A stretch of DNA of 64,000 bases from a virus. How positions within the stretch are numbered: position 1 is the stretch's first letter; each line of letters opens with the position of its first letter. The notes under the pieces are model-generated. The model worked only from the letters and a program-made list of their open reading frames with translations, was not told the origin of the DNA and made no database searches. A program made the translations under genes and the position numbers. The DNA lies in IMG/VR virus record IMGVR_UViG_3300036766_001793, positions 64,001 to 128,000 of that record, one strand, 5' to 3'. Positions 38,314 through 59,130 of this stretch are shown here, piece by piece.

Positions 38314-38314
38314 A

Positions 38315-39088: not shown

Positions 39089-39919
39089 TTAGTCCGGGGC
39101 GTCGGTGCTGTGGTGCCGGCAGAGGGATTCGAACCCCCAATGCGCGGACGCGCCTGCTCTACAGGCAGGTGCCCTTCCTACTGGGCGTCGCCGGCGTGCT
39201 GCCCCACGATGGGGTTGCCCTGGCGGAACTCCGAGAAGGACCTGGCCCTCCCGTCGCCCCCTGGCCCCGAAGAGCTCGAGCGGCGCGAGGCCGGCGGCCG
39301 GCCTCGATGCGGCGCTGAGCCTCTGGTCCACCACCTGGCGTCCCCTGAGGTTGCTGTAGCTGGTCAGCAGGATCTCGCCCCCGGCGACGTGGGCCCTCTT
39401 GTTGCTCCTGGCCTCGCCCCGCCACTGGGAGGCCGCCCTGGCGTCCCTCGGGTCGAGGAACAGGGTCGCGTCGCTCCACGGGCCGCCGTCCCTGGAGGAC
39501 CGGCCGTCCTTGAAGGAGTACGACCCGCCCATCTTGGTCCTGAAGCCTGTCTCGCCACGCTGCAGGCGGCCAGGCTCCTGCGTCGCGCTTGGCCCGCCGC
39601 TGGGCGGCCCAGGGCTCCTGTGGGCGGCGGCCGAGCCACTGGGCAGCTGGTCGGGCCGGGCCGCCTCCGGTTTCGGCCGCCCCTGGCCGAACCGCTCACC
39701 GCGTTCCCCGTACCGTTTCGCCCACTCCTGCCTGGCCCGCTCGCCTATCGCCCTGCCTGGGTGGCCCCCTGCCGGGGCCTCGTAGTACCGCCCGCCCCTC
39801 GGGCCGACCTTGACGTCGGCGCCTGCCGGGGCTCTGCCCCTCCTGCCGAGGTGCACGCGGTTGACCTCGCCGGAGAGCGCGATGACTGAGTCCAGGGTGG
39901 AGGCGAGGTCCATCCGCAT
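39089..39919 (-). CDS. GPRGG-motif protein; possible frameshift near the 3' end
   Basis: RVHLGRRGRAPAGADVKVGPRGGRYYE; the annotated frame runs through tRNA-Tyr. Confidence 0.55.
   Translation of the reverse strand: MRMDLASTLDSVIALSGEVNRVHLGRRGRAPAGADVKVGPRGGRYYEAPAGGHPGRAIGERARQEWAKRYGERGERFGQGRPKPEAARPDQLPSGSAAAHRSPGPPSGGPSATQEPGRLQRGETGFRTKMGGSYSFKDGRSSRDGGPWSDATLFLDPRDARAASQWRGEARSNKRAHVAGGEILLTSYSNLRGRQVVDQRLSAASRPAAGLAPLELFGARGRREGQVLLGVPPGQPHRGAARRRRPVGRAPACRAGASAHWGFESLCRHHSTDAPD
39111..39195 (-). tRNA. tRNA-Tyr(GUA)
   Basis: Loop CU-GUA-GA, long variable arm, CCA. Confidence 0.85.
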
Positions 39920-39960
39920 ACCATACCGCCGGCACCAACGGAATGGTACCCTTGTGCTGC

Positions 39961-40034
39961 TGGCTCCGGCGCAGGGAGTCGAACCCCGATGAACAGGTTA
40001 ACAGCCTGTCGTCTTACCCTTGGACGACGCCGGA
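39961..40034 (-). tRNA. tRNA-Asn(GUU)
   Basis: Loop CU-GUU-AA, CCA. Confidence 0.9.
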
Positions 40035-40054
40035 ATGCATAGCTGACGCTGCTT

Positions 40055-40122
40055 TGACGCGGGCCGTCCGTCTCGAGCGGACGCCTCCCCGAGGGGGTGT
40101 GCTGTCTTTACACCAGGCCTGC
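40055..40122 (-). ncRNA. tRNA-like RNA with collapsed anticodon loop
   Basis: GCAGGCC/GGCCCGC acceptor, GUGU-AAAGACA-GCAC D arm, CCCC-CUC-GGGG arm, GUCCG-CUCGAGA-CGGAC T arm, ends GUCA. Confidence 0.55.
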
Positions 40123-40125
40123 GCT

Positions 40126-40198
40126 TGGAACCCGCCGGCCGAGTCCAACGGCCACCTCCGGCCCCGCGGCCGGTGCGCTGACGCTACGCCAGACGGGT
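40126..40198 (-). ncRNA. tRNA-like RNA with 6-nt anticodon loop
   Basis: ACCCGUC/GGCGGGU-U-CCA, CCGGC-CGCGGG-GCCGG, T loop UUGGACU. Confidence 0.6.
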
Positions 40199-40203
40199 TG
40201 CTT

Positions 40204-40289
40204 TGGTCGAAGAGGAGGGGGTCGAACCCTCACGCCCTTCCGGGCACAGGCCTCTCATGCCTGCGCGTATGCCGTTTCGCCACTCTCCG
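40204..40289 (-). tRNA. tRNA-Leu(GAG)
   Basis: Loop AU-GAG-AG, long variable arm, CCA. Confidence 0.85.
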
Positions 40290-40499
40290 GTTCTTGTGGG
40301 GGCGCGCTGAGCTCCAGTTGCTTTACGCCAGCGGCCCTGTGGGGCCTGTACCTCCCCCTGCTTGGCTATGCCCGGGAGCCGTCCTCCGACCCGGTGGTCG
40401 CCGGGCGCGGCGGGCCCTTGGGCCCAGACGGCCCCTGCGGGGACGCCTGGGTCTGCGGCTCCGGGGCCTTCGGTCTCTCGAGCACCTGCGTCTGGGCCG

Positions 40500-40757
40500 T
40501 CATGCGGTCGCCGGCTTGGGCACGTTTCCGTACCAGCGCTCTATGACCTCCAGCGGGCGCCAGGCCTCTGCCGGGCACTCGGAGAACCCTTCCTGGGCCC
40601 GCCCGGTGAAGTTCACCCTCCGCTCGAGGCGGGCCGCCTGGAGCTCGGGGTACCTGTCGCAGTATTCGCAGGCCGCCGGCGCGTGGAGGACCTGCGCGTC
40701 GCAGTGCGGGAACGGCGCGTCGGAGTCGAACCCGTCGCGCTCCCTGGTGAATCTCAT
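40500..40757 (-). CDS. Hypothetical phage protein (FPHCD..VLHAP..CEYCD..P.LQ..R...VNFTG)
   Basis: AGGAG RBS. Confidence 0.6.
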   Translation of the reverse strand: MRFTRERDGFDSDAPFPHCDAQVLHAPAACEYCDRYPELQAARLERRVNFTGRAQEGFSECPAEAWRPLEVIERWYGNVPKPATA

Positions 40758-40778
40758 CTCGTGTTCTCCTACTCTTCT

Positions 40779-40853
40779 TGGTACCTCCGGCGGGATTCGA
40801 ACCTGCACTTCCTGGATTAAAAGTCCAGTACGCTGCCATTACGTCACAGAGGC
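40779..40853 (-). tRNA. tRNA-Lys(UUU)
   Basis: Loop CU-UUU-AA, CCA. Confidence 0.9.
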
Positions 40854-40866
40854 ACCTTACACATTC

Positions 40867-40942
40867 TGGAGCGGCCGGCGGGGCTCGAACCCGCGGTCTC
40901 CGCCTTGGCGAGGCGGCGCGCTGCCAGCTGCGCCACGGCCGC
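40867..40942 (-). tRNA. tRNA-Gly(GCC), C33
   Basis: Loop UC-GCC-AA, CCA. Confidence 0.85.
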
Positions 40943-41082
40943 GAAGGGGGGGCGCATTGCGCCCCCGGTGGAATCCTACTCCGGGGACTGGCCCCGTTTC
41001 AGATTCGCTATTGCGGGGGACCGCCTGCCCCTTCCCCACGCACTCCGGCCCCCTCACCTGCGGGGCCGGCCCCGGACTTCCT

Positions 41083-41159
41083 TGGTCAGTGAGGAGGGAG
41101 TCGAACCCACGGCCTCTTCGTCCCGAACGAAGCGCTCTGCCAGACTGAGCTACACACTG
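41083..41159 (-). tRNA. tRNA-Pro(CGG)
   Basis: Loop UU-CGG-GA, CCA. Confidence 0.9.
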
Positions 41160-41171
41160 ACATTCTAGGCC

Positions 41172-41330
41172 GCCACGCGGCTGGTCACCAATTTTGGTTC
41201 GGCCCTCGCCAGGCCCAGCGGCGGTCAAGCCTCTGGCTCTCCCCGGGTCGGGCCTCCCCTCAACGACTGTCGACCGTCCGACCCGGCCCGGTGACTAGCC
41301 GACACCTGGTCCTGACAGCCTCACGTAGCC
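41172..41330 (-). ncRNA. Candidate structured ncRNA, copy A (GGCYAGUCACCG family)
   Basis: Closing stem GCUACGUGAGGCUGUCA/UGACCAGCCGCGUGGC; CGGC-UA-GUCA/UGAC-C-GCCG; no credible ORF. Confidence 0.45.
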
Positions 41331-41430
41331 TAATCGGCAACGCCCGCTTCCCGCGCGCCGGTATGCCCTCTCGCTGGCCTCCGCCTGGCTGAGGCGCGCG
41401 ATCGGTCTTGGGAGGGGGCCGACCGCGCCG

Positions 41431-41486
41431 CGGCGGTCAACCCGCGAGGGCCGGCCCCCTCCCTCGGGGGCGGTGACTGGCCGCCG
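41431..41486 (-). ncRNA. Candidate structured ncRNA, copy B
   Basis: GCGGC-CA-GUCACCG...GUUGAC-C-GCCGC. Confidence 0.35.
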
Positions 41487-41518
41487 TCCTCTCATCAGTC
41501 CGATCCTAATACAACCTT

Positions 41519-41592
41519 TGGTCAGGGAGGAGGGGGACGATCCCTCTCCACGCGGTCCCAAACCGCGAATGCAGCCCCTACACCACTCCCTG
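41519..41592 (-). tRNA. tRNA-Pro(UGG)
   Basis: Loop UU-UGG-GA, atypical T loop AUCGUCC, CCA. Confidence 0.8.
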
Positions 41593-41645
41593 GTTAGCGT
41601 CGCCCAGTCCTACTCCGATATGGCCATCTCTCAAAGAGTACCGAG

Positions 41646-41750
41646 CTCTCGGTTGGGCCGCCCGCCAGCATCTCCCGGGGGGCGGTCGTCCCTCAGCGCC
41701 TTTCGCCCTCTCCCCGGCGTCGGTGACTGGCCGACACAGGTTACCGAGAG
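41646..41750 (-). ncRNA. Candidate structured ncRNA, copy C
   Basis: CUCUCGGU/ACCGAGAG closing stem; GUGUCGGCCAGUCACCG...CCGGG...CGAAAG.CGCUGAGGG...CCCGGGAGA, colinear with copy A. Confidence 0.45.
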
Positions 41751-41761
41751 ATCATCGCAAT

Positions 41762-41838
41762 TGGTCAAGCTGGCGGGGATCGAACCCACGGCCTCGTGAC
41801 CCCCAGTCACGCGCGCTGCCAAACTGCGCCACAGCCTG
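41762..41838 (-). tRNA. tRNA-Pro(GGG)
   Basis: Loop CU-GGG-GG, CCA. Confidence 0.9.
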
Positions 41839-42013
41839 ATGGCCCCGCGGCGCCAGGTTCGCCCCTGCAATCCCCCTCTTCGGGGGCCGGGGCCCTCCGG
41901 CCCTCGGGGCCGGCCTGGCGTGAAGGGAGTTACCGCCCGGCGGGGGGAGCTTGCCTTGCCACCCGCCGGGGGCCCGAGGTGGTCAGCGGACGGCAAGCCG
42001 CCCGCGGGGTTTC

Positions 42014-42087
42014 TGGGGTGCAGGACGGGATTCGAACCCGTATCAGCTGGGTCACAGCCGGCCGTTCTGCCCTTGAACTACCCGCAC
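42014..42087 (-). tRNA. tRNA-His(GUG), no encoded G-1
   Basis: Loop CU-GUG-AC, C73, U at position -1. Confidence 0.85.
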
Positions 42088-42188
42088 ATGGGGCCCCGTT
42101 GACTGCGGGCCCATTCCGCGACCGGCACGGAGCTCACACCGGCAGCTTGGCCTGGCCCTCGCGGACGCGTAGGAGGCTCTAAGGTGGA

Positions 42189-42262
42189 TGGTGGCCTCGA
42201 GGGGACTCGAACCCCTTCCTCGTCCTTGAGAGGGACGTGTCCTGCCGTTAGACCACGAGGCC
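42189..42262 (-). tRNA. tRNA-Glu(CUC)
   Basis: Loop CU-CUC-AA, CCA. Confidence 0.9.
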
Positions 42263-42299
42263 GCGGCCTGAGGCCGCGCTCTCGGCCTGGCTGGGTGGG

Positions 42300-42374
42300 T
42301 GGTGGTCCCGGCGGGGGTCGAACCCGCCCCTGGCGCTTGAAAGGCGCCCGTCCTGACCGCTAGACCACGGGACC
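42300..42374 (-). tRNA. tRNA-Glu(UUC)
   Basis: Loop CU-UUC-AA, CCA. Confidence 0.9.
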
Positions 42375-42537
42375 GTGGCTGCTTGCCCCCGGGTGAGCCA
42401 GTTCTTCGCTGGCGGCCGAGTCGGTACCGGTTTTCCCCGGGCGCAGTGGCCCGCCACTATTCGCGGCGCGGCGACTGGCGGCTCGTTCGGCCCTCCGACC
42501 GGGCCTGGCCGCTACGCTGCGCGCCGCTAGGCGGATG

Positions 42538-42612
42538 TGGTACCCGCGCCGGGAGTCGAACCCGGACCTCAACTTTAGGGGAGTTGCGTCCTATCCATTG
42601 GACCACGTGGGC
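42538..42612 (-). tRNA. tRNA-Arg(CCU), C33
   Basis: CAACU-CC-CCU-AA-AGUUG, CCA. Confidence 0.8.
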
Positions 42613-42632
42613 ATCTGTCTGGCGGCGGGGAT

Positions 42633-42765
42633 GGCGCCCCGCCGCGATCTGAAGGTTCCCGCTGAGACCAGCCCCGCGGGAAGTGACCCCCGGTGACTAC
42701 TAGCCGGCGGACTATACCCCCCTGGGGCCGTCCTGAACCGCGATCGGAGGGCGCCGCGCGCCCGC
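42633..42765 (-). ncRNA. Candidate structured ncRNA, copy D (rod-like)
   Basis: GGCGCC/GGCGCC and CGCGGUU/GAUCGCG closing stems; GGCUAGUAGUCACCG; UUCCCGC/GCGGGAA hairpin. Confidence 0.35.
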
Positions 42766-42771
42766 CTTCTC

Positions 42772-42846
42772 TGGTGCCCCAGGACGGAATCGAACCGCCT
42801 GCTCCCTCCGTGTAGAGGAGGAGCTCTTCCGGTGAGCTACTGGGGC
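42772..42846 (-). tRNA. tRNA-Val(UAC), C33
   Basis: Loop UC-UAC-AC, CCA. Confidence 0.8.
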
Positions 42847-42982
42847 GAGTCATCCCCCAGATAGTACCGGGGGCGGATTAGGTATTCGCGGGGCTCTCCG
42901 GCCCCTTGGCGGGCCGCCGGGCGGGGCGTAGCCCCGCCGCTGGCTGGTGTGAATCTGCCATAGCGACCCCTTTCGGCTTGAT

Positions 42983-43057
42983 TGGCAGGAGCGGCGGGAA
43001 TCGAACCCGCATCTTCAGTTTTGGAGACTGGCGCCCTAGCCTTTGGACGACGCACCT
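42983..43057 (-). tRNA. tRNA-Trp(CCA)
   Basis: Loop CU-CCA-AA, CCA. Confidence 0.9.
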
Positions 43058-43117: not shown

Positions 43118-43555
43118 TCAGTGTTTCCCCAGCCGCTCGAGGAATGAGATGAAGCGCCCGTTGGTCAGGGCCCCGGGCCTCCTGGACCTCATGTACCTGA
43201 TGAGCTCCGGCCCGGATCTGCCCGTCAGCTTGTGGACGGCCATCGCGTTGACGAGGGAGGACCTGTTCAGGCCGGCCGCGCAGTGGACCAGCACGCGCCC
43301 GCCGGACGACACGGCGGAGCACACCCTGGAGACCACCTCGTCGAGGTCCTCGCGGTCCGGGAGTGGCCCGTCCTCTATCTGCCACCTGAGCTCTGTGAAC
43401 GGCCCGCGGCCGCCGCCGCCGGAGAACGGTGGGTCCCCGTTGAGGTTCACCACGTAGTCTATGCCGAGGTCGAGGACCTCGCCCTCGCCCTCCCGGCCCT
43501 GGACAGACCCGGACTGCCAGAGCCTGCCGGGGATGATCTCATAGAGCTCGGTCAT
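43118..43555 (-). CDS. Dual-specificity (PTP-fold) phosphatase
   Basis: VLVHCAAGLNRS (HCx5R) and IEDGPLP. Confidence 0.9.
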   Translation of the reverse strand: MTELYEIIPGRLWQSGSVQGREGEGEVLDLGIDYVVNLNGDPPFSGGGGRGPFTELRWQIEDGPLPDREDLDEVVSRVCSAVSSGGRVLVHCAAGLNRSSLVNAMAVHKLTGRSGPELIRYMRSRRPGALTNGRFISFLERLGKH

Positions 43556-44550
43556 CCGGCCGCCCGCCGGGAGCTGACGGCCGCGACGACCGCCGCCGGG
43601 AAGACCCCCTTGGCCAGAAGGCCGCTGACGAGTATGGCCTCGTCGTGTGAGTAGCTCTTCTGCGAGAGGAGCGGGTCCACCTCGATGTCGATCTCTTGGT
43701 CGCCGAACAGGTCCGCCATCGGGTCGCTCTTCATGGCCTCCACGATGACGTGGTCGTCCTCCGCGGTCACGTCCAGGTCAGAAGCCCCGAGGGCCCTCTC
43801 CACGAGCCTGGTCGCCTTCTCCGCCTCTCCGTCGCTCCTGCCGCGCCCGTAGACCTCGAAGCAATCGTCTCGTGCGCTGATCTCGTACCCCGCGGTGGAC
43901 CTGCCGTCCGCGAGCTTCCTGGCCTGCGGGATCTTGGCGGCGGAAAGGATTTCCCTGATCCTGGCAATGGTGCTCTCGAATGGCTCCTCGACGTCCACCG
44001 TCTGGGAGGTCCTCGGGGTTGGCTTGACCTCTCTGGTGGGGTTGGAGCTGGGCTGCTCGGCGACCACCGCCATCGACCCCGCCCCGCGCTTCGCTCCGGC
44101 CTCCTGGGCGGCCTTCCCGCGGGTGGGAACCTCGAAGAACCTGCCGCCGCGTGGGCCCTCCTGGACGAACACAGACGGCGGGGCCTCCTCCCCCTCGCGC
44201 AGGTACTGGCGCTCCTTCGGGAGCGGGGACCTCTCCCCGGAATCGGTCTCTTTGACGGCGAAGTACTCCTGCTTCGTCTTCTGCCTGGTGAGTGCCGTCG
44301 GATCATGCTCCGGGCCGCCGCGGCGCCCTTGCGCCTTGGCCACGAACCTGGATACCTCCGCCGCCAGATCGACTAGGCTATTGGCATAGCTGTTGGTCAT
44401 CTTGGACTCCCTATCTGACTCCTCGAAGGACTTCCCCTGGTAGCCGTGGGCGTACGCAGCCCTGGCCTGGCGCTGGGCGCCAGCCTCGCTGGGGTACACG
44501 TGTCCGTGCTCGCCCCACTTGTAGCCGCCCTTGACCTTGTGAACTGGCAC
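43552..44550 (-). CDS. Modular putative internal head protein with GPRGG motif
   Basis: MPVHKVKGGYKWG...RQARAAYAHGY N-terminal module; RQYLREGEEAPPSVFVQEGPRGGRFF; leaderless TAGGAT. Confidence 0.6.
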   Translation of the reverse strand: MPVHKVKGGYKWGEHGHVYPSEAGAQRQARAAYAHGYQGKSFEESDRESKMTNSYANSLVDLAAEVSRFVAKAQGRRGGPEHDPTALTRQKTKQEYFAVKETDSGERSPLPKERQYLREGEEAPPSVFVQEGPRGGRFFEVPTRGKAAQEAGAKRGAGSMAVVAEQPSSNPTREVKPTPRTSQTVDVEEPFESTIARIREILSAAKIPQARKLADGRSTAGYEISARDDCFEVYGRGRSDGEAEKATRLVERALGASDLDVTAEDDHVIVEAMKSDPMADLFGDQEIDIEVDPLLSQKSYSHDEAILVSGLLAKGVFPAAVVAAVSSRRAAG

Positions 44551-44559: not shown

Positions 44560-45558
44560 CTACGCCAGCGCCGGCCTGCCACCAAACCTGCGGGACACCG
44601 AGGTGGCCAGGTCCATCGCGTCCTCCAGCTCTGACTGCGGCGACGGGCCCTCCCGCCTGATGCGCTCCGCCACCAGCCTCACGGTCCCCTCCCATTCCTT
44701 CCGCTGTCCGTGGAGGGTCATGGATCCGCCCTGCGAGAACCAGAGCCGGTCATATTCCTCGGGGTGGTAGGTCTCCATCCAGCTCTCGTAGAACTGGGCC
44801 GGCACCCACCTGTGTACCTGCTCGCGGCACTCGAGCTCGGCCCTGTCGGCTTCCTTCATCTTCTGGTAGGTTCGCCCACCGAGGCCCCAGTGGTCCCAGG
44901 GGAAGTCCATCCACTTGCCTCCGCCGGCTGGCTCCCACCCGTCCTTGAAGACGAGCTCCCTGGAATCGAGGTCATCGAGGATGGCCATTCCGTACTGGCC
45001 GTCGCTGAACTCGGCGACTGCGGCCACGTCCCTGCTCAGGTATCTCTGGACAGCCGCTCTCTGCCTGTCCCTCATGCCCCTGACGAACGGCGCGTACCGG
45101 CCGTCGTCCCGCCCCATCGCCTTGCCGGCGGCCTTAGCGACCTTCCCGCCGCCTCTGACGGCTATCGGCCTGGCTTCGAGCTCCATGAGCTCCCCCGCCG
45201 ACAGGTCGCGCGGTCTCGGTTCCCTCCTGAGCTCGAGCTTGGCCCTCGCCCTCGCCGCCTTCCGCCGCCCCGCAGTCCACTCCCTGTGGGCGTCGCTGCC
45301 GTCGGGAACGAAGAAGCGCCCACCGCGCTGGCCGGTCTGGACGTCCGCCCCCTGTGGGCCCTCCTCACCCTCGCGGAGGTACGTGCGGCGGCCGTCCTCT
45401 GGCGCCGCCTTCTCCTCCAGGGTGGCGCCCTCACGGATCTCCCTGATGGCCGCCACCATGTCAGAGTCGTCATTGAGGTCGTATTCGGAGTCGTCGGAAG
45501 CCCACGGCACGACCCCCCTGGGAAGCTGGATCGGGACCGGTCGGTCAGGCATCGCCAC
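44560..45558 (-). CDS. GPRGG-motif protein
   Basis: EEKAAP...RTYLREGEEGPQGADVQTGQRGGRFF. Confidence 0.6.
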   Translation of the reverse strand: MAMPDRPVPIQLPRGVVPWASDDSEYDLNDDSDMVAAIREIREGATLEEKAAPEDGRRTYLREGEEGPQGADVQTGQRGGRFFVPDGSDAHREWTAGRRKAARARAKLELRREPRPRDLSAGELMELEARPIAVRGGGKVAKAAGKAMGRDDGRYAPFVRGMRDRQRAAVQRYLSRDVAAVAEFSDGQYGMAILDDLDSRELVFKDGWEPAGGGKWMDFPWDHWGLGGRTYQKMKEADRAELECREQVHRWVPAQFYESWMETYHPEEYDRLWFSQGGSMTLHGQRKEWEGTVRLVAERIRREGPSPQSELEDAMDLATSVSRRFGGRPALA

Positions 45559-47041
45559 CCCTTCCCCTCTCGTAGTACCTCTGCCCTATAGCGTACCCGG
45601 GGGACCCCTCCTCGAGGCTCTTGGCCCCGTCCCAGTCGTCGACGTAGTCGCTGAGGAGGAACGCCTTGCCGAGGTGCCCGCTCCCCTGCTTAGATTTGGT
45701 GCTCCAGGCGTGCTCCTTACCGTCGTCCAGGGCCGCAAAGTCCCATGCATGCTCCAGCCCGCCGTTCTCCCTCGAGAGCCTCTCGAACCTCGCGGCGTCT
45801 GAGTTGGCAAGCACCTGGCGCATCCCCTGCGACCCGAGAACCATCCTCTCGTCTCCCATCCTCACCACGTAGTGGTTTGGTCCCTCGATGCCGACGACCT
45901 CGCCATCGCCATGCTGGCTGTCAAACCTGGCGCCGACGGCTGGCTTGGTCGCGAGGTACCCCCTCAGCCGGCCCCTCATCTCCTCGGCCGCGCGGGAGCC
46001 TCTGAAGTCGTAGCCTTGGAGGGCCCACACGTATTTCCCCACGTCTATGTCGGCGTTCAGGTAGATGGAGGTGAGGCCGGCCGCCCTGTAGCTCTCCTCG
46101 GCCCTCTCGTTCAGCCTGGCGGCGAGCCCGCGGCCCTGGTGCTCGGAGGAGATCACGAAGGTGTCGTGCTCCACGGACCCGTCCGCGTTGAACGACCTCA
46201 GCATCGTGCCGACGTCCCTGCCAGTCTCCGGGTCGGTGATTGTGAACCGGACCTTCACGAACTCGTTCCCGCGCTCATCCACCTCGGCGCGGACTGAGAC
46301 CCCGGCCCCTCCATACAGCCTGGAGAAGTCCGCCGGGCTGCCGCGCTCTATCAGGTCCTCGAACCGCATGGAGGCCCTCGCCTGGATCTCGGCCCTGCCA
46401 GACTGGAGGGCGGAGCGGATCTGGTCCTCCGGGATCTCAGCGTCCCCGTCTGGGCCGCGAATCAGGGCCAAGCCCTCACGGACGTCGAGCACGTCGAACC
46501 GCTTCCCGCCGACGCTGATGGTCTCCCCGACGAGGTCGTTCCCGACGCCGTCGCCGTCGTCGTCCTCCATGGAGAGGCGGTCGTCGATCGAAGCCTCGTC
46601 CTCCACCGAGACCGCCCCGCTGCTGAGGTTCTTCACCTCGTACAGGCCGTTGCCTATGGCGCGCTGGACGCGGTAGACCTCCCCGCCGCCGACCCACTCA
46701 GCACCTGTGTAGTCGTCCCCCGGGTCGTCCTCCTCGTCTGGGGCCTGGGTGATCGTCCCCGCTGACGCCATGGCCACCACGTCCTCCCTGGGCACCCCGT
46801 CGTAGACCCTGCCGTCGTCCCTGAGCAGGACCCACGTGCCGTCGGCCGCCTCGTCCACGACCGTGAAGGACCTGCCGTTGGGGTCGTCCCACGCGAGGCC
46901 TGAAAGCCCTCCGGAGAGGCTGGTGGCCACCTCGCTGGTCTCGTAGTAGAGGCCTCCGCGCGGGCCCTCCTCCACCGTGGTGCCCGTGGGAGCCTCACCT
47001 GGGTCGTCCACGTATGTCTTTGGTTCGTCCAGATGCACCAT
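45545..47041 (-). CDS. GPRGG-motif protein with GNAT acetyltransferase-like domain
   Basis: KTYVDDPGEAPTGTTVEEGPRGGLYY at the N-terminus; HQGRGLA...IYLNADIDVGKYVWALQGYDF; probable start ATG 47041. Confidence 0.7.
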   Translation of the reverse strand: MVHLDEPKTYVDDPGEAPTGTTVEEGPRGGLYYETSEVATSLSGGLSGLAWDDPNGRSFTVVDEAADGTWVLLRDDGRVYDGVPREDVVAMASAGTITQAPDEEDDPGDDYTGAEWVGGGEVYRVQRAIGNGLYEVKNLSSGAVSVEDEASIDDRLSMEDDDGDGVGNDLVGETISVGGKRFDVLDVREGLALIRGPDGDAEIPEDQIRSALQSGRAEIQARASMRFEDLIERGSPADFSRLYGGAGVSVRAEVDERGNEFVKVRFTITDPETGRDVGTMLRSFNADGSVEHDTFVISSEHQGRGLAARLNERAEESYRAAGLTSIYLNADIDVGKYVWALQGYDFRGSRAAEEMRGRLRGYLATKPAVGARFDSQHGDGEVVGIEGPNHYVVRMGDERMVLGSQGMRQVLANSDAARFERLSRENGGLEHAWDFAALDDGKEHAWSTKSKQGSGHLGKAFLLSDYVDDWDGAKSLEEGSPGYAIGQRYYERGRGGDA

Positions 47042-47062
47042 CACATCATCCTGCCGAGGGCT

Positions 47063-47095
47063 AAAAAAGGGGGCCCCCACCGTGGCGGGGCCCCC
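47063..47095 (-). terminator. Intrinsic terminator
   Basis: GGGGGCCCC...GGGGCCCCC hairpin followed by U6 on the minus strand. Confidence 0.8.
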
Positions 47096-47116: not shown

Positions 47117-49771
47117 CTAGATCCGCTTGGACCGCGCGGTGCCGGCCACTGCCGCCAGGGCCAGGGCCAGAACGAACGTCAGGAGGACGAAGTCACCGAG
47201 GCCGACACCGCCGCCTCCAGCTTGCGGCGTCTGGCCGCCGTTGCCGGTGTTAGGGGCGATGGGGGTTGGCGGCGCGCCGACCGAGCGAGGGGTCGGAGGC
47301 GCCTGAGTCGGGGTCGCGTTGCCAGCCGGCGGCGGGATGGCCGTCGGCGGCGTTGCGGTCGCCGTCGGCGACGCCTGGGCAGGAGCGGTCGGGGTGACGG
47401 CCGGCCCGCAGCCGATCAAGCACCCTGGCTCGTTCTTGACGTTGGTGAAGAACAGCGTCTGGACGCCGTCCGGCGAGGCGAAGACCGCAGTCTGGACCGG
47501 GCTGAGGGCTGTCCACCCAGGCGCGCCCGCCTCGGCGACGGTGTAAACGCACCCGGCCACCAGGTCCATGGGGCCGAAGACGACGTTGCCGCCGACATCG
47601 GTGACCTTGGACCCGGAGGCCCCGCACCCGCTGATGGTGAACACCCAGCCCTGGCCGTTGAAGCTGCCTGCGCCGGATGTCTCCGTCTTGTGGGCGTTGA
47701 GCGTCACGAACGCCCGCCGGTGGGTATTGGTGACGGTCGCGGAGGCCGCGCCGCCAGATGTCACGCTGACGCTGACCCCGCTTCCGGACACGGTCCAGTC
47801 AGGGCCGGGGTCGCTCTCGGCCACCGCGTAGGTGCCCGGAAGGAGGCCGGTGAAGACGCGGACCTGGCCCGCGGTGTACTGGTCGCACTCGCTGAGCGAC
47901 GGCCCGCTGACGCAGATCCGGAAGCTCGCGCTCGGGCTCGCCGGCCAGTTTTGCCAGTTGACCGTCTTGCCCACCTGAAGGCTGCCCTTCGGCAGGTGGC
48001 AAGTGACGACGACGAACGCGTCGGCATGCTCGGACGACTCGCCGAAGTACACCGTGGCGGTGTTCTGACGAACCACCGAGCCGGTCAGGCTCTGCGGGTT
48101 GTACTCGATGCCCTCGCAGGTGCGGGCCACCTCGTACTGGAAAGTCCGGGTCCCGGAGACGCCGGTGTTCGGGCCGCCTGGGTTGCTGTCTGTGACCGCG
48201 GCGGTCGCGTTGATCTGCCTGCCGGCGACGAATTGAATCGGCGCCTGAGCCGACGCCGACTCGCCCTGGCCGAAGCCGACTGTGGCAACGTTCAGGAACT
48301 GGTCGGCGTTCCCCCTCGTCCCGATGAATGAGCAGACGACCTGGGCCGAGGGCGGGAGGTCGAACGGCACGCCGCCAGGGCACACTACGGTCGCGCCTGG
48401 GTCGGAGACCGAGGTCACGTGGACGTTGTACGTTGCGTTCGGGTTTGTGACCGTGATGGTCCCGTTGAACGCGAAGTTGGAGTTGGTGGGGCCGGTCCGC
48501 GTCACCGTGACGGTGTAGTGGCTCGAGCCGCTGCCGCCGACGCCGAGGTCCAGGGCCGCCTGGTCGACGGACTTGGAGATGCCCCAACCGTAGGTCTGGT
48601 CGTACGTGCCGCCACCGGACTTCTTGGAAACGGCGGGGGCCTTGAGCTGTTCCTGCGGGTCCTGGTTAGTCACTGTGCACGTGATGTCCCCGACGCCGGC
48701 GGGGACGGTGATCTGGTGGCCTGCGTTCGGCGCGAGGCCTGAGTCGCACGCGTACCCGACCAGCGTAAAGCCGGCCGGCCCTGTCTCTCCGAGTGTGTAG
48801 GTGCCACCGATGGCCGCGGCCACGGAAGTGCTCCCGGCGCCGCTGCCGGCCGGGGCCCCGGAGATGGACACCGTGAAGGCGCTGGCCGGAGAGGTGCCCA
48901 GGCTGTGGTCTCCGTGGGCCACGGCCTTGTTCAGGATGAGCTTTCGCGCCGGCGGTGTGGTCTTATTGTAGGCGCAGACGTGGAGGGTGCCCTGCCCGCT
49001 CCATCCGCCGGCGGGGACGTCGGCTGCGGCCGCGAACGGCCCGTTGAACGCGTCTCCGTGCTCGCACTGGCTATTGCCAGGGGCCGGGACGGTGAACCCA
49101 GTCAGCTGATACCCGGCCTTGGCCTGCTCAGTCACCCAGACTTCCTGGTTGGGGGAATCGAGGAGGCCGAGCTGGTGGCCGCTGCCGTAGGACTGGCCTA
49201 CGGCCGATCCGGTGCGCACATCGAAGGTGAACTGCTCCTGGCCGGCTCCTTGATTCTGCCAGTGGCCGCCGTCCCAGAGGTACTTGTGCACCTGGATCTT
49301 GCAGGGGTCGACGGTCACGCGGGCGGTGGCGTCGGAGTCCATGCCGTCGCCCTGGAGGCCGTCGCTGTCGTTTTGGACATCCTTCCTGATGATCCAGCCG
49401 CCGTGTCCGTCACTCTTGGCGTAGTAGAGCTCCGCGAGCACATCCACGTCTGCCGGAGCCGCGTACGTCTTCACGAAGACGTCGTTTGTGTCGACGGCGA
49501 TGAACGCCGGGCCGCCGCGCAAAGTGTACTGACCGTTCCCGTGGGGCCTGTCATAAAAGTACAGGATGCGCCCAGGGGAGTTGATCTGCACCCCGTTCAC
49601 GTGAGCAGTCCGGCTCCCGCAGGAGCCTGACACCGTGACGGTAGGGCGGTTGGCGAAGGCCGTCCCGAAGAACAGCAACGCCGCGACGGCCGCGAGGAGC
49701 ATCGCTCCGACGCCCCCGGCCACCAGGCCGGCCCGGCGCCGCGGCGACTTGCCGTGTAGGGCAAGCGTCAT
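47117..49771 (-). CDS. Secreted sortase-type surface protein with SpaA/prealbumin-like domains
   Basis: Signal peptide ending AFA; K...YxxxE...C.VTN repeats; Pro/Thr linker; APNTG then TM helix then RSKRI; AAAGAGG RBS before ATG 49771. Confidence 0.75.
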   Translation of the reverse strand: MTLALHGKSPRRRAGLVAGGVGAMLLAAVAALLFFGTAFANRPTVTVSGSCGSRTAHVNGVQINSPGRILYFYDRPHGNGQYTLRGGPAFIAVDTNDVFVKTYAAPADVDVLAELYYAKSDGHGGWIIRKDVQNDSDGLQGDGMDSDATARVTVDPCKIQVHKYLWDGGHWQNQGAGQEQFTFDVRTGSAVGQSYGSGHQLGLLDSPNQEVWVTEQAKAGYQLTGFTVPAPGNSQCEHGDAFNGPFAAAADVPAGGWSGQGTLHVCAYNKTTPPARKLILNKAVAHGDHSLGTSPASAFTVSISGAPAGSGAGSTSVAAAIGGTYTLGETGPAGFTLVGYACDSGLAPNAGHQITVPAGVGDITCTVTNQDPQEQLKAPAVSKKSGGGTYDQTYGWGISKSVDQAALDLGVGGSGSSHYTVTVTRTGPTNSNFAFNGTITVTNPNATYNVHVTSVSDPGATVVCPGGVPFDLPPSAQVVCSFIGTRGNADQFLNVATVGFGQGESASAQAPIQFVAGRQINATAAVTDSNPGGPNTGVSGTRTFQYEVARTCEGIEYNPQSLTGSVVRQNTATVYFGESSEHADAFVVVTCHLPKGSLQVGKTVNWQNWPASPSASFRICVSGPSLSECDQYTAGQVRVFTGLLPGTYAVAESDPGPDWTVSGSGVSVSVTSGGAASATVTNTHRRAFVTLNAHKTETSGAGSFNGQGWVFTISGCGASGSKVTDVGGNVVFGPMDLVAGCVYTVAEAGAPGWTALSPVQTAVFASPDGVQTLFFTNVKNEPGCLIGCGPAVTPTAPAQASPTATATPPTAIPPPAGNATPTQAPPTPRSVGAPPTPIAPNTGNGGQTPQAGGGGVGLGDFVLLTFVLALALAAVAGTARSKRI

Positions 49772-50044
49772 GTGTGGTACCTCTTTCCTTGTCTGTGCGC
49801 AGCCGGGCATCGCCCCGGCCCCTCGTCCCCGACGGGGGATTTGATGTCTCTATAGTACCGCGCTCAGCGCCTGCCGCGGGCCCGCCTGGACCGCCTGACC
49901 GCGTCGGAAAGCCGCGTGGACTGGGTGCCCCTCACCCTCACCGAGAAGGCGAGCCGGCTCCAGCCCGGGAGGAGCACGAGGTGCGTCCCGGTCCAGGTGG
50001 CGCTCAGCCCGAGCGAGGTAGCCACCCAGTCCGCCCTGGCCAGC

Positions 50045-50604: not shown

Positions 50605-53187
50605 TCACTCGTGGTCCATGTATATGGGATACACCGCCTCGACGAGGCGCTTGCCGCTCGAGATGATGACGGTCTGGGTCGGCCTGGAGGCCTTCCCGTA
50701 GGCCCTCAGGTACCAGTTGCTCCCGCCGTCGAGGGTGCCGTTCTGGATGACCGGCACCCCGTTGACCTCGAGCATCGAGAACTCGTGCCTGTGCCCGAGG
50801 AGGAGCAGCTCGGGCCTCGCCCCGAAGATGTCCGCGAGCGTCCACTGGGGGAGCAGCTCCCGGATCTTGATCAAGGGACCATGCCACTGGTCCCCATGCA
50901 TCGCCACCACCTGATGGCCGCACACGCTGAACCTGGACCACCAGTTCTCCTCGATGTGCCAGTTGATGTTGTCCTGGAGCTGGGCCTTGTCCCTGGCCCA
51001 CATGCAGGCGAGCGAGTCGAAGTTGTCCTCCGGGTCGGCGAAGTCGTTCTTTCCGTTGGCCCTCCCGTGGTTCCCCGGGACGGAGTAGACGTCGACCCCC
51101 TTCACATACGAGGCCAAATCCATCGCGACCCCGGCCTGGAGGTCAGCGGTCACCATGATCTGCTTTGTGAGACGGTGGGAATTGCCAGACCGATCAAGCC
51201 CAGTTATATTTTGACCGGCATAGATGAAGCAGTTGTGTCCGACGAGCCCATTGGCTGTGTAATTCTCCAGACCTTCCACCGTCAGATTGTACACGGGTTC
51301 CGCCAGGCTGGACTTGCTAACCTCCAGCACCTTCGTATACCTGGTCCCAGCAAGGGGGGCAATCCAGCCCTTCAGGTCCGTCCTGTATTCTGGTCTCCTT
51401 CTCGGCTGTGTTCTCTGCCCTGCCGAGAATCTCTCCTGATACCTAGGGTCGTGCGACCCTATCTCGCAATTGAGGCTGGGGGCTCCGAGTGTGAGAGTAT
51501 AAAGGTCCCTCTCTATTATCCTTCCGGTGGGCAGCTTTGTCCTCCCTGGCCGGTAGTGCACCTCTGTAGCCACCAACCCTAGCCCGTCGCAAAGGTGCCG
51601 GATGTCCTCCATCAGCTGTCCGTTAACGGACCCGAACACTACGACGCCATCCTTTGTCACGTGTCCGTCCGAGTCGATGTACCCCCGGAGGAAGGCCGCC
51701 CTCAGGTCCCTCCTAAGCCCGAACACCCAGCCTGGCACCCGCTTCTCGCGGGCCCTGCCTCCAAGGCCGAGGTCCAGTATCATCTGGGCCGCCGCGGTTG
51801 ACCCGAAACGGGCCATTCCGTCAGACCAGGCTGAGAACTTCACCGGATCCCCGTTCGCCTTGAAGAAGACCTTCTCGGCACCCTCGAGATATCGGGCGAT
51901 CCACTGAACCGCATTCTCCGCGAAGGCGATGCACACCACGTTCGGTTTCCCATCCCTGCCGCGTCCGAGGCACCCGTCGCCAAGGTAGAGCCCCAGGAAT
52001 TCCATGAGCTCCACGGAAGCATCGGTCCCCAGCGGGGTAGCGGCGTTCCCGCCGTCCGAGAATCTTTCCACCATCGCCACCAGGTCGCCAGGTTGCACCT
52101 CTCCTGCGCGTACGTAATTCAGGGTTACCTCGTACCGGTGCCGGTTCCGATACGAAGACCCAGACACCTCTGTGCGGCGCATGACCAAGAAGGGATGCTC
52201 GCCGTTCGCCCTAACCGTCCTGTCCCTGGTCCTGATTGTGTAGAGTGGGTCAATTCCAGTCATGGCCGCCGCGGATACTATAGCCCTCTCAAATCCCTCC
52301 CGACCGAGGGCCCATACTTCATCACCAGCGATGAAACTCTCTATCGGCTTCGGACCGTCTGGCGTGTCCACCAAGGTGCCGGCTGGGAGGCAGCCTTCTA
52401 GCATGTCTCCGGCGAACACCAGGTGGGCCCTATCCACCGAGTAGCCGGAGTCCCGGTACTGCTTCACGATTTCGTAGGTGGCCGCCATGAGCCTCGGGAC
52501 GCGCTGCTCCACGACGGCCCTCACACCGATGCCATTCTCCATTTTGCCTACCTGCCAATCCGAGCACAGGACGATGACCTCCCGCGCCCCCTTCGGCTTG
52601 TCGACGTCCCCCGGTCCCGGTTGCCTTCGCTCCGGGAGCAGCCACCGATTCTCCGTCAGGACCTTATTCACCTGGTACCTGAGGAACTCGCGCTGCGAGG
52701 TGAGCTGCTGCACCTTGCGCTGGAGGCGGTTCTTTTGGCCGAACGCCCTCGCGGCCATCTCCGTGCCGCTGGCCTCCGGGTAGAGGGATCCCTCCTCTGC
52801 GAGGATCTCCTCCTTCGTCCAGAGGCGCTCCGACCGCCTGCAGTCTGGGTGGTGATACCAGTGGCCGTCGTTCACAGGGGTGAACCGCTCTATGCAGTCG
52901 CGGTTCATGCAGCGGCGCCTGACCGCGAAGGGAAGGCCCTCGCCGTCGTCATCCCAGAAGTCGCCCACTGGCGCCGAAGGTTCGGCAGCCTGGCGGACTT
53001 CTCCGCTTTTCCGGTAACGATCGGCCCGGAGGCCCCTCATGTTCATCCTCTTGGCGATGCTGTCGTACTTTACGACCCCGTCGAACCCGTGCCGGCGAAG
53101 GACCTCCTGGGCGGCCTTCCCGCCGCCCGACGGGTACACCAGGCTGATCTCCTCCCAGACGCCGTCCGGAATAAGGCTGCGAGCCAC
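50605..53187 (-). CDS. Calcineurin-like metallophosphoesterase with LAGLIDADG intein
   Basis: SDWQVG, GDMLEG|CF, PGNHG, HGDQ, GHRH motifs. Confidence 0.85.
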   Translation of the reverse strand: MARSLIPDGVWEEISLVYPSGGGKAAQEVLRRHGFDGVVKYDSIAKRMNMRGLRADRYRKSGEVRQAAEPSAPVGDFWDDDGEGLPFAVRRRCMNRDCIERFTPVNDGHWYHHPDCRRSERLWTKEEILAEEGSLYPEASGTEMAARAFGQKNRLQRKVQQLTSQREFLRYQVNKVLTENRWLLPERRQPGPGDVDKPKGAREVIVLCSDWQVGKMENGIGVRAVVEQRVPRLMAATYEIVKQYRDSGYSVDRAHLVFAGDMLEGCLPAGTLVDTPDGPKPIESFIAGDEVWALGREGFERAIVSAAAMTGIDPLYTIRTRDRTVRANGEHPFLVMRRTEVSGSSYRNRHRYEVTLNYVRAGEVQPGDLVAMVERFSDGGNAATPLGTDASVELMEFLGLYLGDGCLGRGRDGKPNVVCIAFAENAVQWIARYLEGAEKVFFKANGDPVKFSAWSDGMARFGSTAAAQMILDLGLGGRAREKRVPGWVFGLRRDLRAAFLRGYIDSDGHVTKDGVVVFGSVNGQLMEDIRHLCDGLGLVATEVHYRPGRTKLPTGRIIERDLYTLTLGAPSLNCEIGSHDPRYQERFSAGQRTQPRRRPEYRTDLKGWIAPLAGTRYTKVLEVSKSSLAEPVYNLTVEGLENYTANGLVGHNCFIYAGQNITGLDRSGNSHRLTKQIMVTADLQAGVAMDLASYVKGVDVYSVPGNHGRANGKNDFADPEDNFDSLACMWARDKAQLQDNINWHIEENWWSRFSVCGHQVVAMHGDQWHGPLIKIRELLPQWTLADIFGARPELLLLGHRHEFSMLEVNGVPVIQNGTLDGGSNWYLRAYGKASRPTQTVIISSGKRLVEAVYPIYMDHE
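51232..52392 (-). mobile_element. Intein 3 (387 aa) with LAGLIDADG endonuclease
   Basis: CLPAGT...ANGEHPF...LGLYLGDG...FLRGYIDSDG...VYNLTV...GHN|C. Confidence 0.9.
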
Positions 53188-54796: not shown

Positions 54797-55213
54797 TCAG
54801 TCTGCCTTCTTTCCCTTTCTGTACTCGCTCTCGAAGAGCGGCATCATGATGGAGACGTCTACCTGCGAGTCCACCGGCTCCTCGGAAATCGCCTGCCAGC
54901 CCACTCGCAGGGCCACCCTGGCCGCGAAGGCCTTGCGGAGGACGGGCTTCCCGAGTGGGGAACCGCCTGAGGATTTCGCCTCCTGCGGAACCGCGTAGTC
55001 GATCGCGAAGCAGTCGTCCAGGGAGAGCGACAGACAGGCCTCCGGCTGTCCGTTTTCCTCGCAGAAGAGGATGCCCGTCGCTATCTGGTCATTGAGCTCC
55101 TGGCTTGTCGGAGGGATCTTCCACTGGTCCTGGCCGGACATCTCGTGGCGCACCTTGCTCTGGAGCAGCCACAGCTCCTCGAGCGTGAATGTGACCGGGG
55201 TTCTCTCAGGCAT
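54797..55213 (-). CDS. Hypothetical protein (MPERTPVTF...)
   Basis: GGAGG RBS. Confidence 0.55.
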   Translation of the reverse strand: MPERTPVTFTLEELWLLQSKVRHEMSGQDQWKIPPTSQELNDQIATGILFCEENGQPEACLSLSLDDCFAIDYAVPQEAKSSGGSPLGKPVLRKAFAARVALRVGWQAISEEPVDSQVDVSIMMPLFESEYRKGKKAD

Positions 55214-55293
55214 CTGTGCCTCCGCCGGATTACTATGCGCCCGCCGGGGTGGGATTGGGGCCTGCCATCGGCCACACTTTGCGAAGTTTCCCG

Positions 55294-57483: not shown

Positions 57484-57543
57484 CTCGATCCATCTCCTCT
57501 GATGTCGTAGAAAACTCTAAGCAGTAACTAGGCAGGTGTGTCC

Positions 57544-59130
57544 CTACTTCAGCGGGCGCTGGGCGTAGGCGGCCCCCTTGTACACATTGGCCGAGCTCGG
57601 GACGACCACGGGATCTGAAGACCAGCGACCCATGCTCGGGTTGCGCTCGCCCGGACTCAGGGACGGGTGGTCGTTCCGAGCAGGGTCTTCATCGAGCCCA
57701 GCCGCAAACTCGGAGAAGATGTCCTCGGCGACGACCATGGCCGCCTGCTTGGCGACGTCTGGGTCCTCGTGCGGGTTAGTCCTCATGAACAGGTCTGCGA
57801 GCGGGTCCACGAGGTCGTAGGCGTCGTCGTGGCTGAGGTCTCCCGCCCTGGCGGACCTGGCCCACTCCCGCTTGAACTGGCCCTGCAGCCGCCCTCCCGC
57901 CGGATCGTTGTCCGCCATGTCTCGCATGCGCTCGCCGTAGTCGTCGGCCGTGGCCTCACTCTCCTCCCTCGACCTCTGCGGCCTGCGGACCTTCAGCGAC
58001 TGGACCTCCTCCACGTCCTTGGGGTGGAGCTGCCCGCCGCTGTCCGTGACGAACCGGCCGCCGCGCGGCCCCTGCTGGACGTTGGTCCCCTGCGGCGGCT
58101 GCTCGTCCGGCCTCAGGTAGCGGACGTCTTCGGCCGCCTTCTCCTCCCGGCGCTCGGCCGGCCAGTGACCCGTGCCCTCGTGCTCGGCCCAGGCGCAGAA
58201 GGCGTGCGGGTCGTCGACTGTGCCGCCGACGTGCTCCATGCACTTCGAGTGCGGCCCCTTCGAGACCGACTCCCAGAACTTCCTGGACGAGCCCCTGCCC
58301 CATCCCTTCGGCTTGCCGGCCTTGTTGGCGACCTCGCCGCTGGTCACGCTGCCGGAGTAGGGGCCCTCCGTCTCCGGGTGCTCTATGTCGTGCGCCACCG
58401 ACCCGTAGGCCGGGCGGGCCATCGACCCGTGGATCCCGTCGTCCTCCGGCTCGTCGGCCGGGTAGGACGGCTCGCCGACCGCCTTCAGGATCGAGTCGCT
58501 GACCATGACGACCGCGTCGAGGGACCAGGAGACTGAGCTCTCGAGCTCTTCGTCTGGGTCCACCTCTGGGCCCCTGGCCTTCGCGAGCCCCTCGCCCTTG
58601 AACGTCTTCCCGCTGCGGAGGGACGCCGTCTGGGTCAGGAGGTTGCTGCCGCTCGGCCTCCGCGGCGCCGGTTGGGCCGGCGGGGCCTTCGGCTTGAGGC
58701 TGAAGGTGTGCCCCTGGACGTCGGCGCCCTCGAGCATGTCGTCCCCGAGGATGCGTCGCGCGTCCGTCTCCCTGGTGGCCTGGATCTCCTGCAGCCTCCC
58801 GCGGAGCTCCTGGATGCGCCTCATCTCCGGCGGGTTGCACTCGCCCTTCCTGGCCTTGTCGTACAGGTCCTTGTACTCGTCGATGATCTTGTCTTCCTCG
58901 CCGTGCATCGGGTCGGCCGAGGCCTTCCTGTGCCTGAGGGTGACCGGGTGCTCCTCCGGATGGCCGAAATGGCGGTGGGTCAGCACCTTCCGATCTGGGC
59001 CGGTCTCCGCGACGTGAACCGGCCTCTGCGTATAGGAGGCCTCCACCGCCGGCACCGGGCCGAGCGGGGCTTGGGTCCCGACGGACATCCCCTGCTTGTT
59101 GACGACTGACTGGCCTACGGCGATAGTCAT
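57544..59130 (-). CDS. Modular putative internal head protein with GPRGG motif
   Basis: KCMEH...DDPHAFCAW...GHWP module; EEKAAEDVRYLRPDEQPPQGTNVQQGPRGGRF; many K-[AG] sites. Confidence 0.6.
   Translation of the reverse strand: MTIAVGQSVVNKQGMSVGTQAPLGPVPAVEASYTQRPVHVAETGPDRKVLTHRHFGHPEEHPVTLRHRKASADPMHGEEDKIIDEYKDLYDKARKGECNPPEMRRIQELRGRLQEIQATRETDARRILGDDMLEGADVQGHTFSLKPKAPPAQPAPRRPSGSNLLTQTASLRSGKTFKGEGLAKARGPEVDPDEELESSVSWSLDAVVMVSDSILKAVGEPSYPADEPEDDGIHGSMARPAYGSVAHDIEHPETEGPYSGSVTSGEVANKAGKPKGWGRGSSRKFWESVSKGPHSKCMEHVGGTVDDPHAFCAWAEHEGTGHWPAERREEKAAEDVRYLRPDEQPPQGTNVQQGPRGGRFVTDSGGQLHPKDVEEVQSLKVRRPQRSREESEATADDYGERMRDMADNDPAGGRLQGQFKREWARSARAGDLSHDDAYDLVDPLADLFMRTNPHEDPDVAKQAAMVVAEDIFSEFAAGLDEDPARNDHPSLSPGERNPSMGRWSSDPVVVPSSANVYKGAAYAQRPLK

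Follow-up and report, generated by a model that had tools for sequence, protein, structure and literature searches.

A window of 64,000 nucleotides (bases 64001-128000) of the 165,484-bp IMG/VR virus genome IMGVR_UViG_3300036766_001793 (68% guanine plus cytosine (GC), ~87% complete) encodes five proteins which share an element of about 35 residues containing the sequence G-P-R-G-G and termed here the GPRGG module. Comparison across virus sequences suggests that this element is an adaptor, found in tailed viruses of bacteria and archaea, which marks proteins and polyprotein segments destined for the inside of the capsid. We regard this reading as reasonably probable. The viruses concerned would belong to a broad lineage whose members have in common a portal, a capsid protein like that of HVTV-1 and a maturation protease of divergent S78 (HK97) type. 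To our knowledge, the way in which proteins are selected for packaging and injection in tailed phages is largely unknown beyond T4 and the phiKZ-like giants, and the prediction of head-packaged effectors currently rests on fusions to MuF, portal or protease. An earlier note on this window, made from its letters and a list of its open reading frames (ORFs), had proposed that the shared motif is a portable tag which loads unrelated effectors into the head, on the model of the short targeting peptides of T4 internal proteins.

In the window the motif is encoded on the minus strand. Four of the five ranges named in that note read directly there in translation, plus-strand translation of the five yields no motif, and the second range (82 bases) is off frame, its in-frame reading being KERQYLREGEEAPPSVFVQEGPRGGRFF within the ORF 43552-44550 (minus strand). 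All five carrier ORFs, named P0011 to P0015 below, have high third-position GC, as coding sequence. Their modules and genes are arranged as follows (window positions here and below, unless genome positions are indicated; a slash within a motif marks a cut or cut-like bond):

39770..39877, minus strand: module copy 1 (P0011, residues ~15-50), LSGEVNRVHLGRRGRAPAGADVKVGPRGGRYYEAPA, 50.0 bits
39089..39919, minus strand: P0011 gene, likely start ATG at 39913 (MDL...), inside the tRNA array
44122..44229, minus strand: module copy 2 (P0012, residues ~108-143), 57.2 bits, the copy folded by AlphaFold
43552..44550, minus strand: P0012 gene (332 amino acids, aa), module mid-protein, C-terminal domain without assigned function
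45298..45405, minus strand: module copy 3 (P0013, residues ~52-87), 57.0 bits, seven residues past LEEK/AA
44560..45558, minus strand: P0013 gene (332 aa), C-terminal domain without assigned function
46931..47038, minus strand: module copy 4 (P0014), 53.2 bits, extreme N-terminus, at residue 7 provided that translation begins from the ATG at 47041
45545..47080, minus strand: P0014 gene (511 aa), module plus GNAT-like acetyltransferase domain (Acetyltransf_1, 21.8 bits), paralogue of the protein at genome 162883-164466
58036..58143, minus strand: module copy 5 (P0015, residues ~330-365), 57.7 bits, four residues past REEK/AA
57544..59130, minus strand: P0015 gene (528 aa), Cys/His-rich small domain (phrog_6439) before the module, unassigned domain after it

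A profile built from the five segments and run over all six-frame ORFs of the genome finds nine copies, each on the minus strand and with a score of 50-58 bits, and no other match exceeds 8.5 bits; the nine-copy signal is far beyond chance. The four copies outside the window fall at genome 5999-7258, 7262-8770, 59433-60539 and 162883-164466. The presence of the module on all five window proteins is thus confirmed, and so is the claim that the rest of each protein differs, since BLASTP with the module masked reveals no similarity among the five. The sole related pair among the nine carriers, under the same masking, is P0014 and the protein at genome 162883, which are joined via their GNAT-like C-terminal domain. 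Three proteins had been said to carry the module N-terminally or after an EEK-A site; this placement stands and the count becomes four, the module being N-terminal in P0011 and P0014 and following EEKAA in P0013 and P0015. With one or two recognisable domains each, the window carriers are single-passenger proteins. P0011 consists of an N-terminal helix and the module, then a conserved domain of no assigned function; it is a real gene since it is 58% identical over 247 aa to the outside protein P0158, also a module bearer, and the 3' end of its ORF overlaps tRNA-Tyr (39111-39195). A small N-terminal motif of P0012, KGGYKWGEHG, matches phrog_31267, and the module is retained in P0098, the orthologue of this protein, while in a search of PHROGs the module stretch of P0014 is matched by positions 18-50 of phrog_24083 (function not assigned). 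ESM Atlas searches with P0013 and P0015 gave no usable match, and among GenBank phages megablast revealed nothing related to the 20-kb region.

Over 230-249 instances the consensus of the module reads [LIV]-x-K-[AGS]-[RK]-[VI]-Y-[LIV]-x-P-G-E-x-[AP]-P-x-G-[VA]-x-V-Q-x-G-P-R-G-G-[RKL]-Y-Y-E, in which P is invariant and Y and the glycines of G-x-x-G-G are conserved at 96-98%. The AlphaFold2 model of copy 2, based on an alignment of 95 sequences, is a three-stranded beta-meander with predicted local distance difference test values (pLDDT) of 80-87 and disordered flanks, its strands corresponding to R-x-Y-L, V-Q-x and R-F/Y-F/Y-E (RQYLR, VQE and RFFEV in the P0012 copy). The GPRGG element is accordingly predicted to be a small autonomously folding domain of ~35 residues rather than a linear peptide tag. 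Pfam searches with whole proteins and with 40-aa module segments at E<=10 returned no family for the module, and a search with the module alignment for homologous proteins gave 13 matches devoid of names or Pfam domains. Net charge of the module (mean +0.7, range about -4.5 to +5; window copies +5 to -6) tracks whole-protein composition. Several copies of this phage open with an L-D-x-h-h-x-L-S helix; a conserved upstream amphipathic helix as a constituent of the element was rejected, the wider family having no conservation beyond position -6.

The profile search that had been proposed in the earlier note, carried out over 1.84 billion cluster representatives, retrieved 449 proteins at E<=1e-3, including 61 at E<=1e-10, and many of the 449 are 400-1800 residues long with 2-6 module copies. 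Of 146 proteins, 50 have the start of a module among their first 40 aa, and in only 6 does the module lie in the last 40 aa; a median of 265 aa follows the last copy, and copies are separated by a median of 289 aa. The module is the leader of each ~290-residue unit, not its trailer. Some small proteins are almost only modules, HVTV-1 gene 116 being an example. Small motifs of 35-40 residues also recur before and between modules, as at the N-terminus of P0012 (window 44445-44550) and in the polyproteins of contigs L019 and L040; they are of two types, W-x-V-Y-S-x-x-G-K-x-L-G-x-H-x-[ST]-K-E-x-A-x-x-Q and K-P-F-A-G-Y-x-x-F-x-x-C, and may represent further small passengers or spacers.

The domains accompanying the module are diverse, and a part of them belongs to head morphogenesis. 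Tallied over 112 module carriers, Pfam partners include Topoisom_I (10), Peptidase_S78 (7, and one S78_2), DUF5661 (6), Phage_portal, DRAT, ADPrib_exo_Tox and PI3_PI4_kinase (5 each), and GNAT, Zeta_toxin, S-adenosylmethionine (SAM) lyase and PolyA_pol (3 each); ART-PolyVal, anthrax-LF-type zincin, HD and ferritin-like/rubrerythrin domains occur as well. The proposed co-occurrence with the protease family and with toxin-type domains is observed for S78 protease, zeta toxin and ADP-ribosyltransferase. In portal fusions the module stands after the portal domain and in protease proteins directly behind the protease domain, and on contig L017 the capsid gene is closely preceded by an S78 protease (30.8 bits), which is followed by the module and then by a zeta toxin (E 1.8e-26). 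Three genes of halovirus HVTV-1 bear modules, namely 113, 115 ('zeta toxin', with an N-terminal module) and 116 (with two copies); the three are flanked by the portal gene (112) on one side and by the protease and capsid genes (119/120) on the other. Besides HVTV-1, cultured haloarchaeal viruses with the module include HCTV-1 and HCTV-5; when the module-rich proteins P0023, P0019 and P0018 were compared with cultured phages by tblastn no module match appeared, P0031 alone leading to haloviruses. Scanning of IMG/VR with a degenerate DNA pattern yielded 27 loci, 23 of them with full modules, and in at least 16 of these 23, some of which are near-duplicates, the module lies in or beside a portal, protease, MuF-like head-assembly or capsid gene. 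The capsid family of this phage (41-73% identity) is found on three of five further module-bearing contigs, and the two contigs devoid of it are only 24% and 46% complete.

A mostly cellular occurrence had been named in the earlier note as an outcome contrary to a virion role. The same DNA pattern has 69 loci in 185,579 prokaryote genomes, only two of which are real modules, both on small, viral-looking contigs in metagenome-assembled genomes (MAGs) of DPANN archaea; since only these two are real and both look viral, the module can be regarded, as far as the pattern reaches, as a virus-restricted element. It is present also in low-GC (28-40%) viral contigs, and the apparent hosts comprise halophilic and DPANN-associated archaea as well as high-GC and low-GC bacteria. 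One 7.7-kb contig from a 'Pacearchaeota' MAG (L064, NZCX01000018.1) contains five consecutive ORFs, each starting with a GPRGG module, and resembles a piece of virus genome that was binned with a DPANN archaeon.

The N-terminal flank of the module has a pattern of its own, with a hydrophobic residue at -6 (63%), K at -4 (68%), A/G/S at -3 (55%) and R/K at -2 (98%). The capsid protein of HK97 is cleaved at K103/S104 (PMC10275583), and its sequence around the cut site is T-F-N-K-S-L-G. Capsid proteins of the relatives all possess x-K-[AS]-D near the N-terminus (ISK-ADG in the capsid protein of this phage), and the protease domains of the relatives are directly followed by x-K-[AS] (VISK/SF in this phage). 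From the likeness of module flank, capsid N-termini, protease-domain ends and the HK97 site we infer a common protease rule, hydrophobic-x-K before a small residue, by which the module would be placed at the new N-terminus. In addition, the N-terminal segment of the capsid protein recurs internally, together with its cut-site-like motif, in the protease-module polyprotein of contig L019 (4077-5648, minus strand; K-SDAP-VTTTTEGVYNPVYG), and this copy could be a decoy or a second substrate site.

Taking as the starting point what is observed of the motif, namely its distribution, its place ahead of each unit, the fold predicted for it and its head-gene fusions and neighbourhoods, the partner, cleavage, packaging and delivery may be pictured in the following way. 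The module would dock its passenger domain to a conserved internal component of the head during procapsid assembly, most likely the inner face of the capsid protein, or a scaffold. The head protease would then cut [LIV]-x-K/[AGS] just ahead of the module, either separating polyprotein units or removing an N-terminal leader helix. With the module still forming its N-terminal part, each mature enzyme (acetyltransferase, kinase, ADP-ribosyltransferase, topoisomerase IB, zeta-toxin kinase and others) would finally leave the capsid together with DNA at infection.

Several known systems resemble this scheme in part. The capsid-targeting sequence (CTS) of T4 is a peptide of ~10 residues cut off after L/I-x-E by an S77 protease, gp21. 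It is a portable N-terminal element of otherwise unrelated proteins (IPI-III, Alt) which travel in the head and are delivered with the DNA, as the module would be, and both are linked to a head-protease cut site, or in our case to a cut-site-like motif. The module differs in its length of ~30-35 residues, its predicted folded state, its internal position in P0012, P0013 and P0015 and its repetition in polyproteins; moreover, its cut-site-like motif is N-terminal and ends in K, so that the module would be retained, and the genome, having no S77 match, encodes an S78-like protease. The earlier proposal is partly supported, as a cargo tag in a general sense, the comparative evidence being in favour of an element that is portable, borne by diverse enzymes and effectors, tied to head morphogenesis and confined to viruses. 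Its T4-style details have to be given up: instead of a short removable targeting peptide there is a predicted ~30-residue folded beta-meander expected to stay on its protein, and instead of a T4-type prohead protease a divergent S78/HK97-type enzyme split by inteins. The designation of an 'undescribed virion cargo system' was also too strong, given that head-fused polyvalent effectors have been described (PMC5512222, PMC9503650) and that the hairpin of the module resembles PF08789 (PMC3281028). Head-packaged, protease-processed cargo and head-fused effectors are known ideas (T4 CTS, polyvalent proteins, SPN3US/phiKZ ejection proteins), and it is the module itself that appears, from searches of Pfam and of the texts of those two papers on effectors, to form an undescribed family with a partial link to PF08789.

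Packaging and injection have been predicted for polyvalent and head-fused effectors (Iyer et al.; PMC5512222, PMC9503650), which have the same repertoire as module carriers (ART, GNAT, NUDIX, 2H, zincin, kinases) and are likewise fused to portal, MuF and the capsid-processing serine protease. Polyvalent proteins comprise two to 15 effector-type domains, of which the window carriers fall short while many homologous carriers elsewhere qualify; similarly, fusion to or neighbourhood with portal, MuF or protease is found for the module family, the window copies being only loosely linked. Term searches of the main texts of these two works revealed no description of such an inter-domain module, and a literature search on 'GPRGG' returned nothing relevant. 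A plausible model for the docking of a small beta module is offered, by analogy, by HK97, where the stretch preceding the cut site attaches to the inside of the capsid as an extra strand of the P-domain sheet (PMC10275583); the scaffolding (delta) domain of HK97, cleaved by an S78 protease, is cut at F-N-K/S, in the same form as the module flank [LIV]-x-K/[AGS]. HK97 differs in having neither cargo proteins nor a GPRGG module. Cargo-loading tags of encapsulins are short, mostly C-terminal linear peptides; they are likewise portable and direct diverse enzymes into an HK97-fold shell, and ferritin-like/rubrerythrin passengers are found among module carriers too.

The likeness to PF08789, the PBCV-specific basic adaptor domain, deserves separate consideration. 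PBCV-1 kinases A278L and A282L carry this adaptor; each virion contains ~400-530 copies of them, and they are recovered together with the DNA released from it (PMC3281028). PF08789 and the module are alike as small adaptors on kinases and other enzymes, the PF08789 carriers being virion-packaged. Both share the hairpin x-V-x-x-G-P-R-G-G-x-Y-Y, and hhalign of the two profiles gives a local probability of 95.9% over only 15 columns (the hairpin) and a global one of 75%. The order of strands differs, K-V-Y-V following the hairpin in the PBCV type and R-V-Y-L preceding it in phages across the loop P-G-E-x-A-P-x-G, and the phage module is not consistently basic. At E<=10 the window copies had no PF08789 match (threshold 20.4 bits), either in six frames of the genome or as five 40-aa segments, and the canonical phage modules P0022, P0023 and P0140 had none as well; the proteins P0057 (73.4 bits) and P0157 (43.6 bits) bridge the families, matching PF08789 and being also retrieved by the module profile. 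P0057 (3223 aa) is built of 34 alternating 59/75-residue repeats, each with a GPRGG-YF hairpin matching PF08789, and has a UTP-glucose-1-phosphate uridylyltransferase domain at its C-terminal end. That the chlorovirus adaptor is in part similar to the module may point to an older connection among systems for virion cargo. A bolder version of the adaptor reading can be put forward tentatively, as a conjecture that we think more apt to fail than to hold: throughout one large lineage of HK97-fold capsids the GPRGG meander might be the universal, transferable domain by which proteins dock to the inner surface, serving both the viruses' own protease and scaffold and a freely swapping pool of injected enzymes, in bacterial and archaeal viruses, with PF08789 as its strand-permuted relative in chloroviruses. 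If so, a single ancient 'address domain' for virion cargo would be spread over viruses of all three domains of life and could be used for loading chosen proteins into capsids.

The head genes of this phage, against which the adaptor reading has to be weighed, are the following:

genome 62520-63938: capsid gene (phrog_24667)
genome 132119-137419 (beyond the window): portal gene (portal homologue)
25685..30547, minus strand: head-maturation protease polyprotein (1620 aa), S78/HK97-type domain with two intervening inteins

Only PHROG and an iterative search that started with HVTV-1 proteins detected the protease and the capsid protein; PF03420 (S77; at E<=1), PF05065 and PF04586 had no match in any of the six frames of the genome. 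Related proteases are divergent S78 members, mostly at or below the Pfam threshold, and the intein-free relative L028 scores just below the S78 threshold. Behind the protease domain the polyprotein has NUDIX, DUF5661 and 2H-phosphoesterase domains, its inteins being recognised by Intein_splicing and Hint; it has no GPRGG module and is presumed to be the processing enzyme.

A number of observations weigh against the adaptor reading. The nine carrier genes are dispersed, one lying ~2 kb from the capsid gene and others near the record ends or beside ribonucleotide reductase, and several are adjacent to nucleotide-metabolism genes and tRNAs rather than placed in the head cluster; four of them are situated upstream of the tRNA array preceding the protease gene, 9-17 kb from that gene across the array. 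Modules persist in proteins already fused to portal or protease, which would need no separate loading signal. An x-K-A site is located upstream of only four of the nine copies in this phage, 7-10 residues off the module, and K-[AS] dipeptides are common, making the cut-site reading weak if taken alone. The count of locus neighbourhoods has no matched control, and searches for structural analogues of the module model yielded none (Foldseek PDB best E 3.1; VIA-align wide best Z 2.2).

The same position at polyprotein unit boundaries with domain-sized spacing, the abutment on a flank resembling HK97 K103/S104 and the capsid and protease sites of relatives, and the co-occurrence with S78 proteases would be expected as well if the module were a mere recognition or cleavage cassette of an S78-type head protease, in which the meander presents the [LIV]-x-K/[AGS] bond and has no docking role. 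We consider this unlikely. Within the same protease lineage both the N-terminus of the capsid protein and the stretch behind the protease domain have cut-site-like motifs but no module, so that the module is not needed for recognition by the protease; in about a third of the carriers it stands at the extreme N-terminus, where there is nothing to release; proteins such as the product of HVTV-1 gene 116 are almost only modules; and a highly conserved fold of 30 residues exceeds the usual needs of a protease site.

A role as a nucleic-acid-binding adaptor, tethering enzymes to the viral genome in the particle or after entry, as proposed for the PBCV basic adaptor, is suggested by the match of the GPRGG-YY hairpin to PBCV-type repeats, with P0057 and P0157 bridging both profiles, by the binding of PF08789-bearing PBCV-1 kinases to released DNA (PMC3281028) and by frequent partners acting on DNA or RNA (topoisomerase IB, poly(A) polymerase/CCA-type enzymes). 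It is rather improbable in our estimation. The charge of the module varies with whole-protein composition, from +5 to -6 in the window, and there is therefore no conserved basic surface; the window copies also fail to match PF08789 even at permissive thresholds. In tailed phages internal proteins enter the procapsid before DNA, according to the established assembly pathway, and DNA binding cannot for this reason be the loading step.

The dispersal of carriers among non-structural genes would agree, on the other hand, with a module acting after delivery or in the cytoplasm, by binding a universal host target or by mediating association of like with like, the link to head genes being secondary. 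WW-type domains, with a three-stranded aromatic-rich meander and a P-x-G-[VW]...G-R-x-Y-Y likeness to the module, are a kind of fold that binds peptides, which would suit such a role. Neither WW nor another family was detected for the module by sequence (Pfam, E<=10) or by fold search, and few host targets would be shared since the hosts span archaea and diverse high- and low-GC bacteria; portal and protease fusions and the clustering between portal and capsid genes would be hard to explain. We assign this possibility a low probability. That the motif is a compositional accident of a GC-rich genome with Gly/Pro/Arg-rich frames is practically refuted: although the bare GPRGG DNA pattern has 16 matches in this 68% GC genome, reverse-pattern controls included, and 67 of the 69 prokaryote pattern matches are not modules, the genome profile scan separates 50-58 bits from a background maximum of 8.5, the family counts 449 proteins, and the module exists in low-GC contigs, is kept in orthologues and is predicted to fold.

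If the adaptor reading is true, the module would flag cargo encoded anywhere in a genome, as in this phage, and would define candidate injected enzymes, namely acetyltransferases, kinases, ADP-ribosyltransferases, topoisomerase IB, zeta-toxin kinases and SAM lyases. It would also offer a compact (~35 aa) handle for tag-reporter packaging, and the prediction of cargo is directly testable because the module occurs in cultured HVTV-1 and HCTV-1/5.

Some further features of this genome may be mentioned. The portal frame has 1767 residues with portal similarity in three separated blocks, which suggests two inserted elements (inteins?) in the portal gene, and an intein containing a LAGLIDADG homing endonuclease is inserted in the 860-residue exonuclease (phrog_284) encoded at window 50605-53187; the phage thus carries several inteins, in exonuclease, protease and probably portal. 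The tRNA array (window 31112-43057, minus strand) contains 41 tRNA genes, one of which is not assignable by ARAGORN (40126-40198, 'anticodon cg'), with at least one protein gene, P0011, embedded. Directly downstream of three consecutive module genes, window 43118-43555 encodes a dual-specificity protein phosphatase (DSPc, E 3.9e-11), which has no module and matches weakly also the polymorphic-toxin DSP-PTPase family. Directly upstream of P0014, window 47117-49810 encodes an 897-residue protein with SpaA-type prealbumin-fold domains, which may be a virion surface or fibre protein, in which case the genes from P0014 to P0012 would sit in a late operon.

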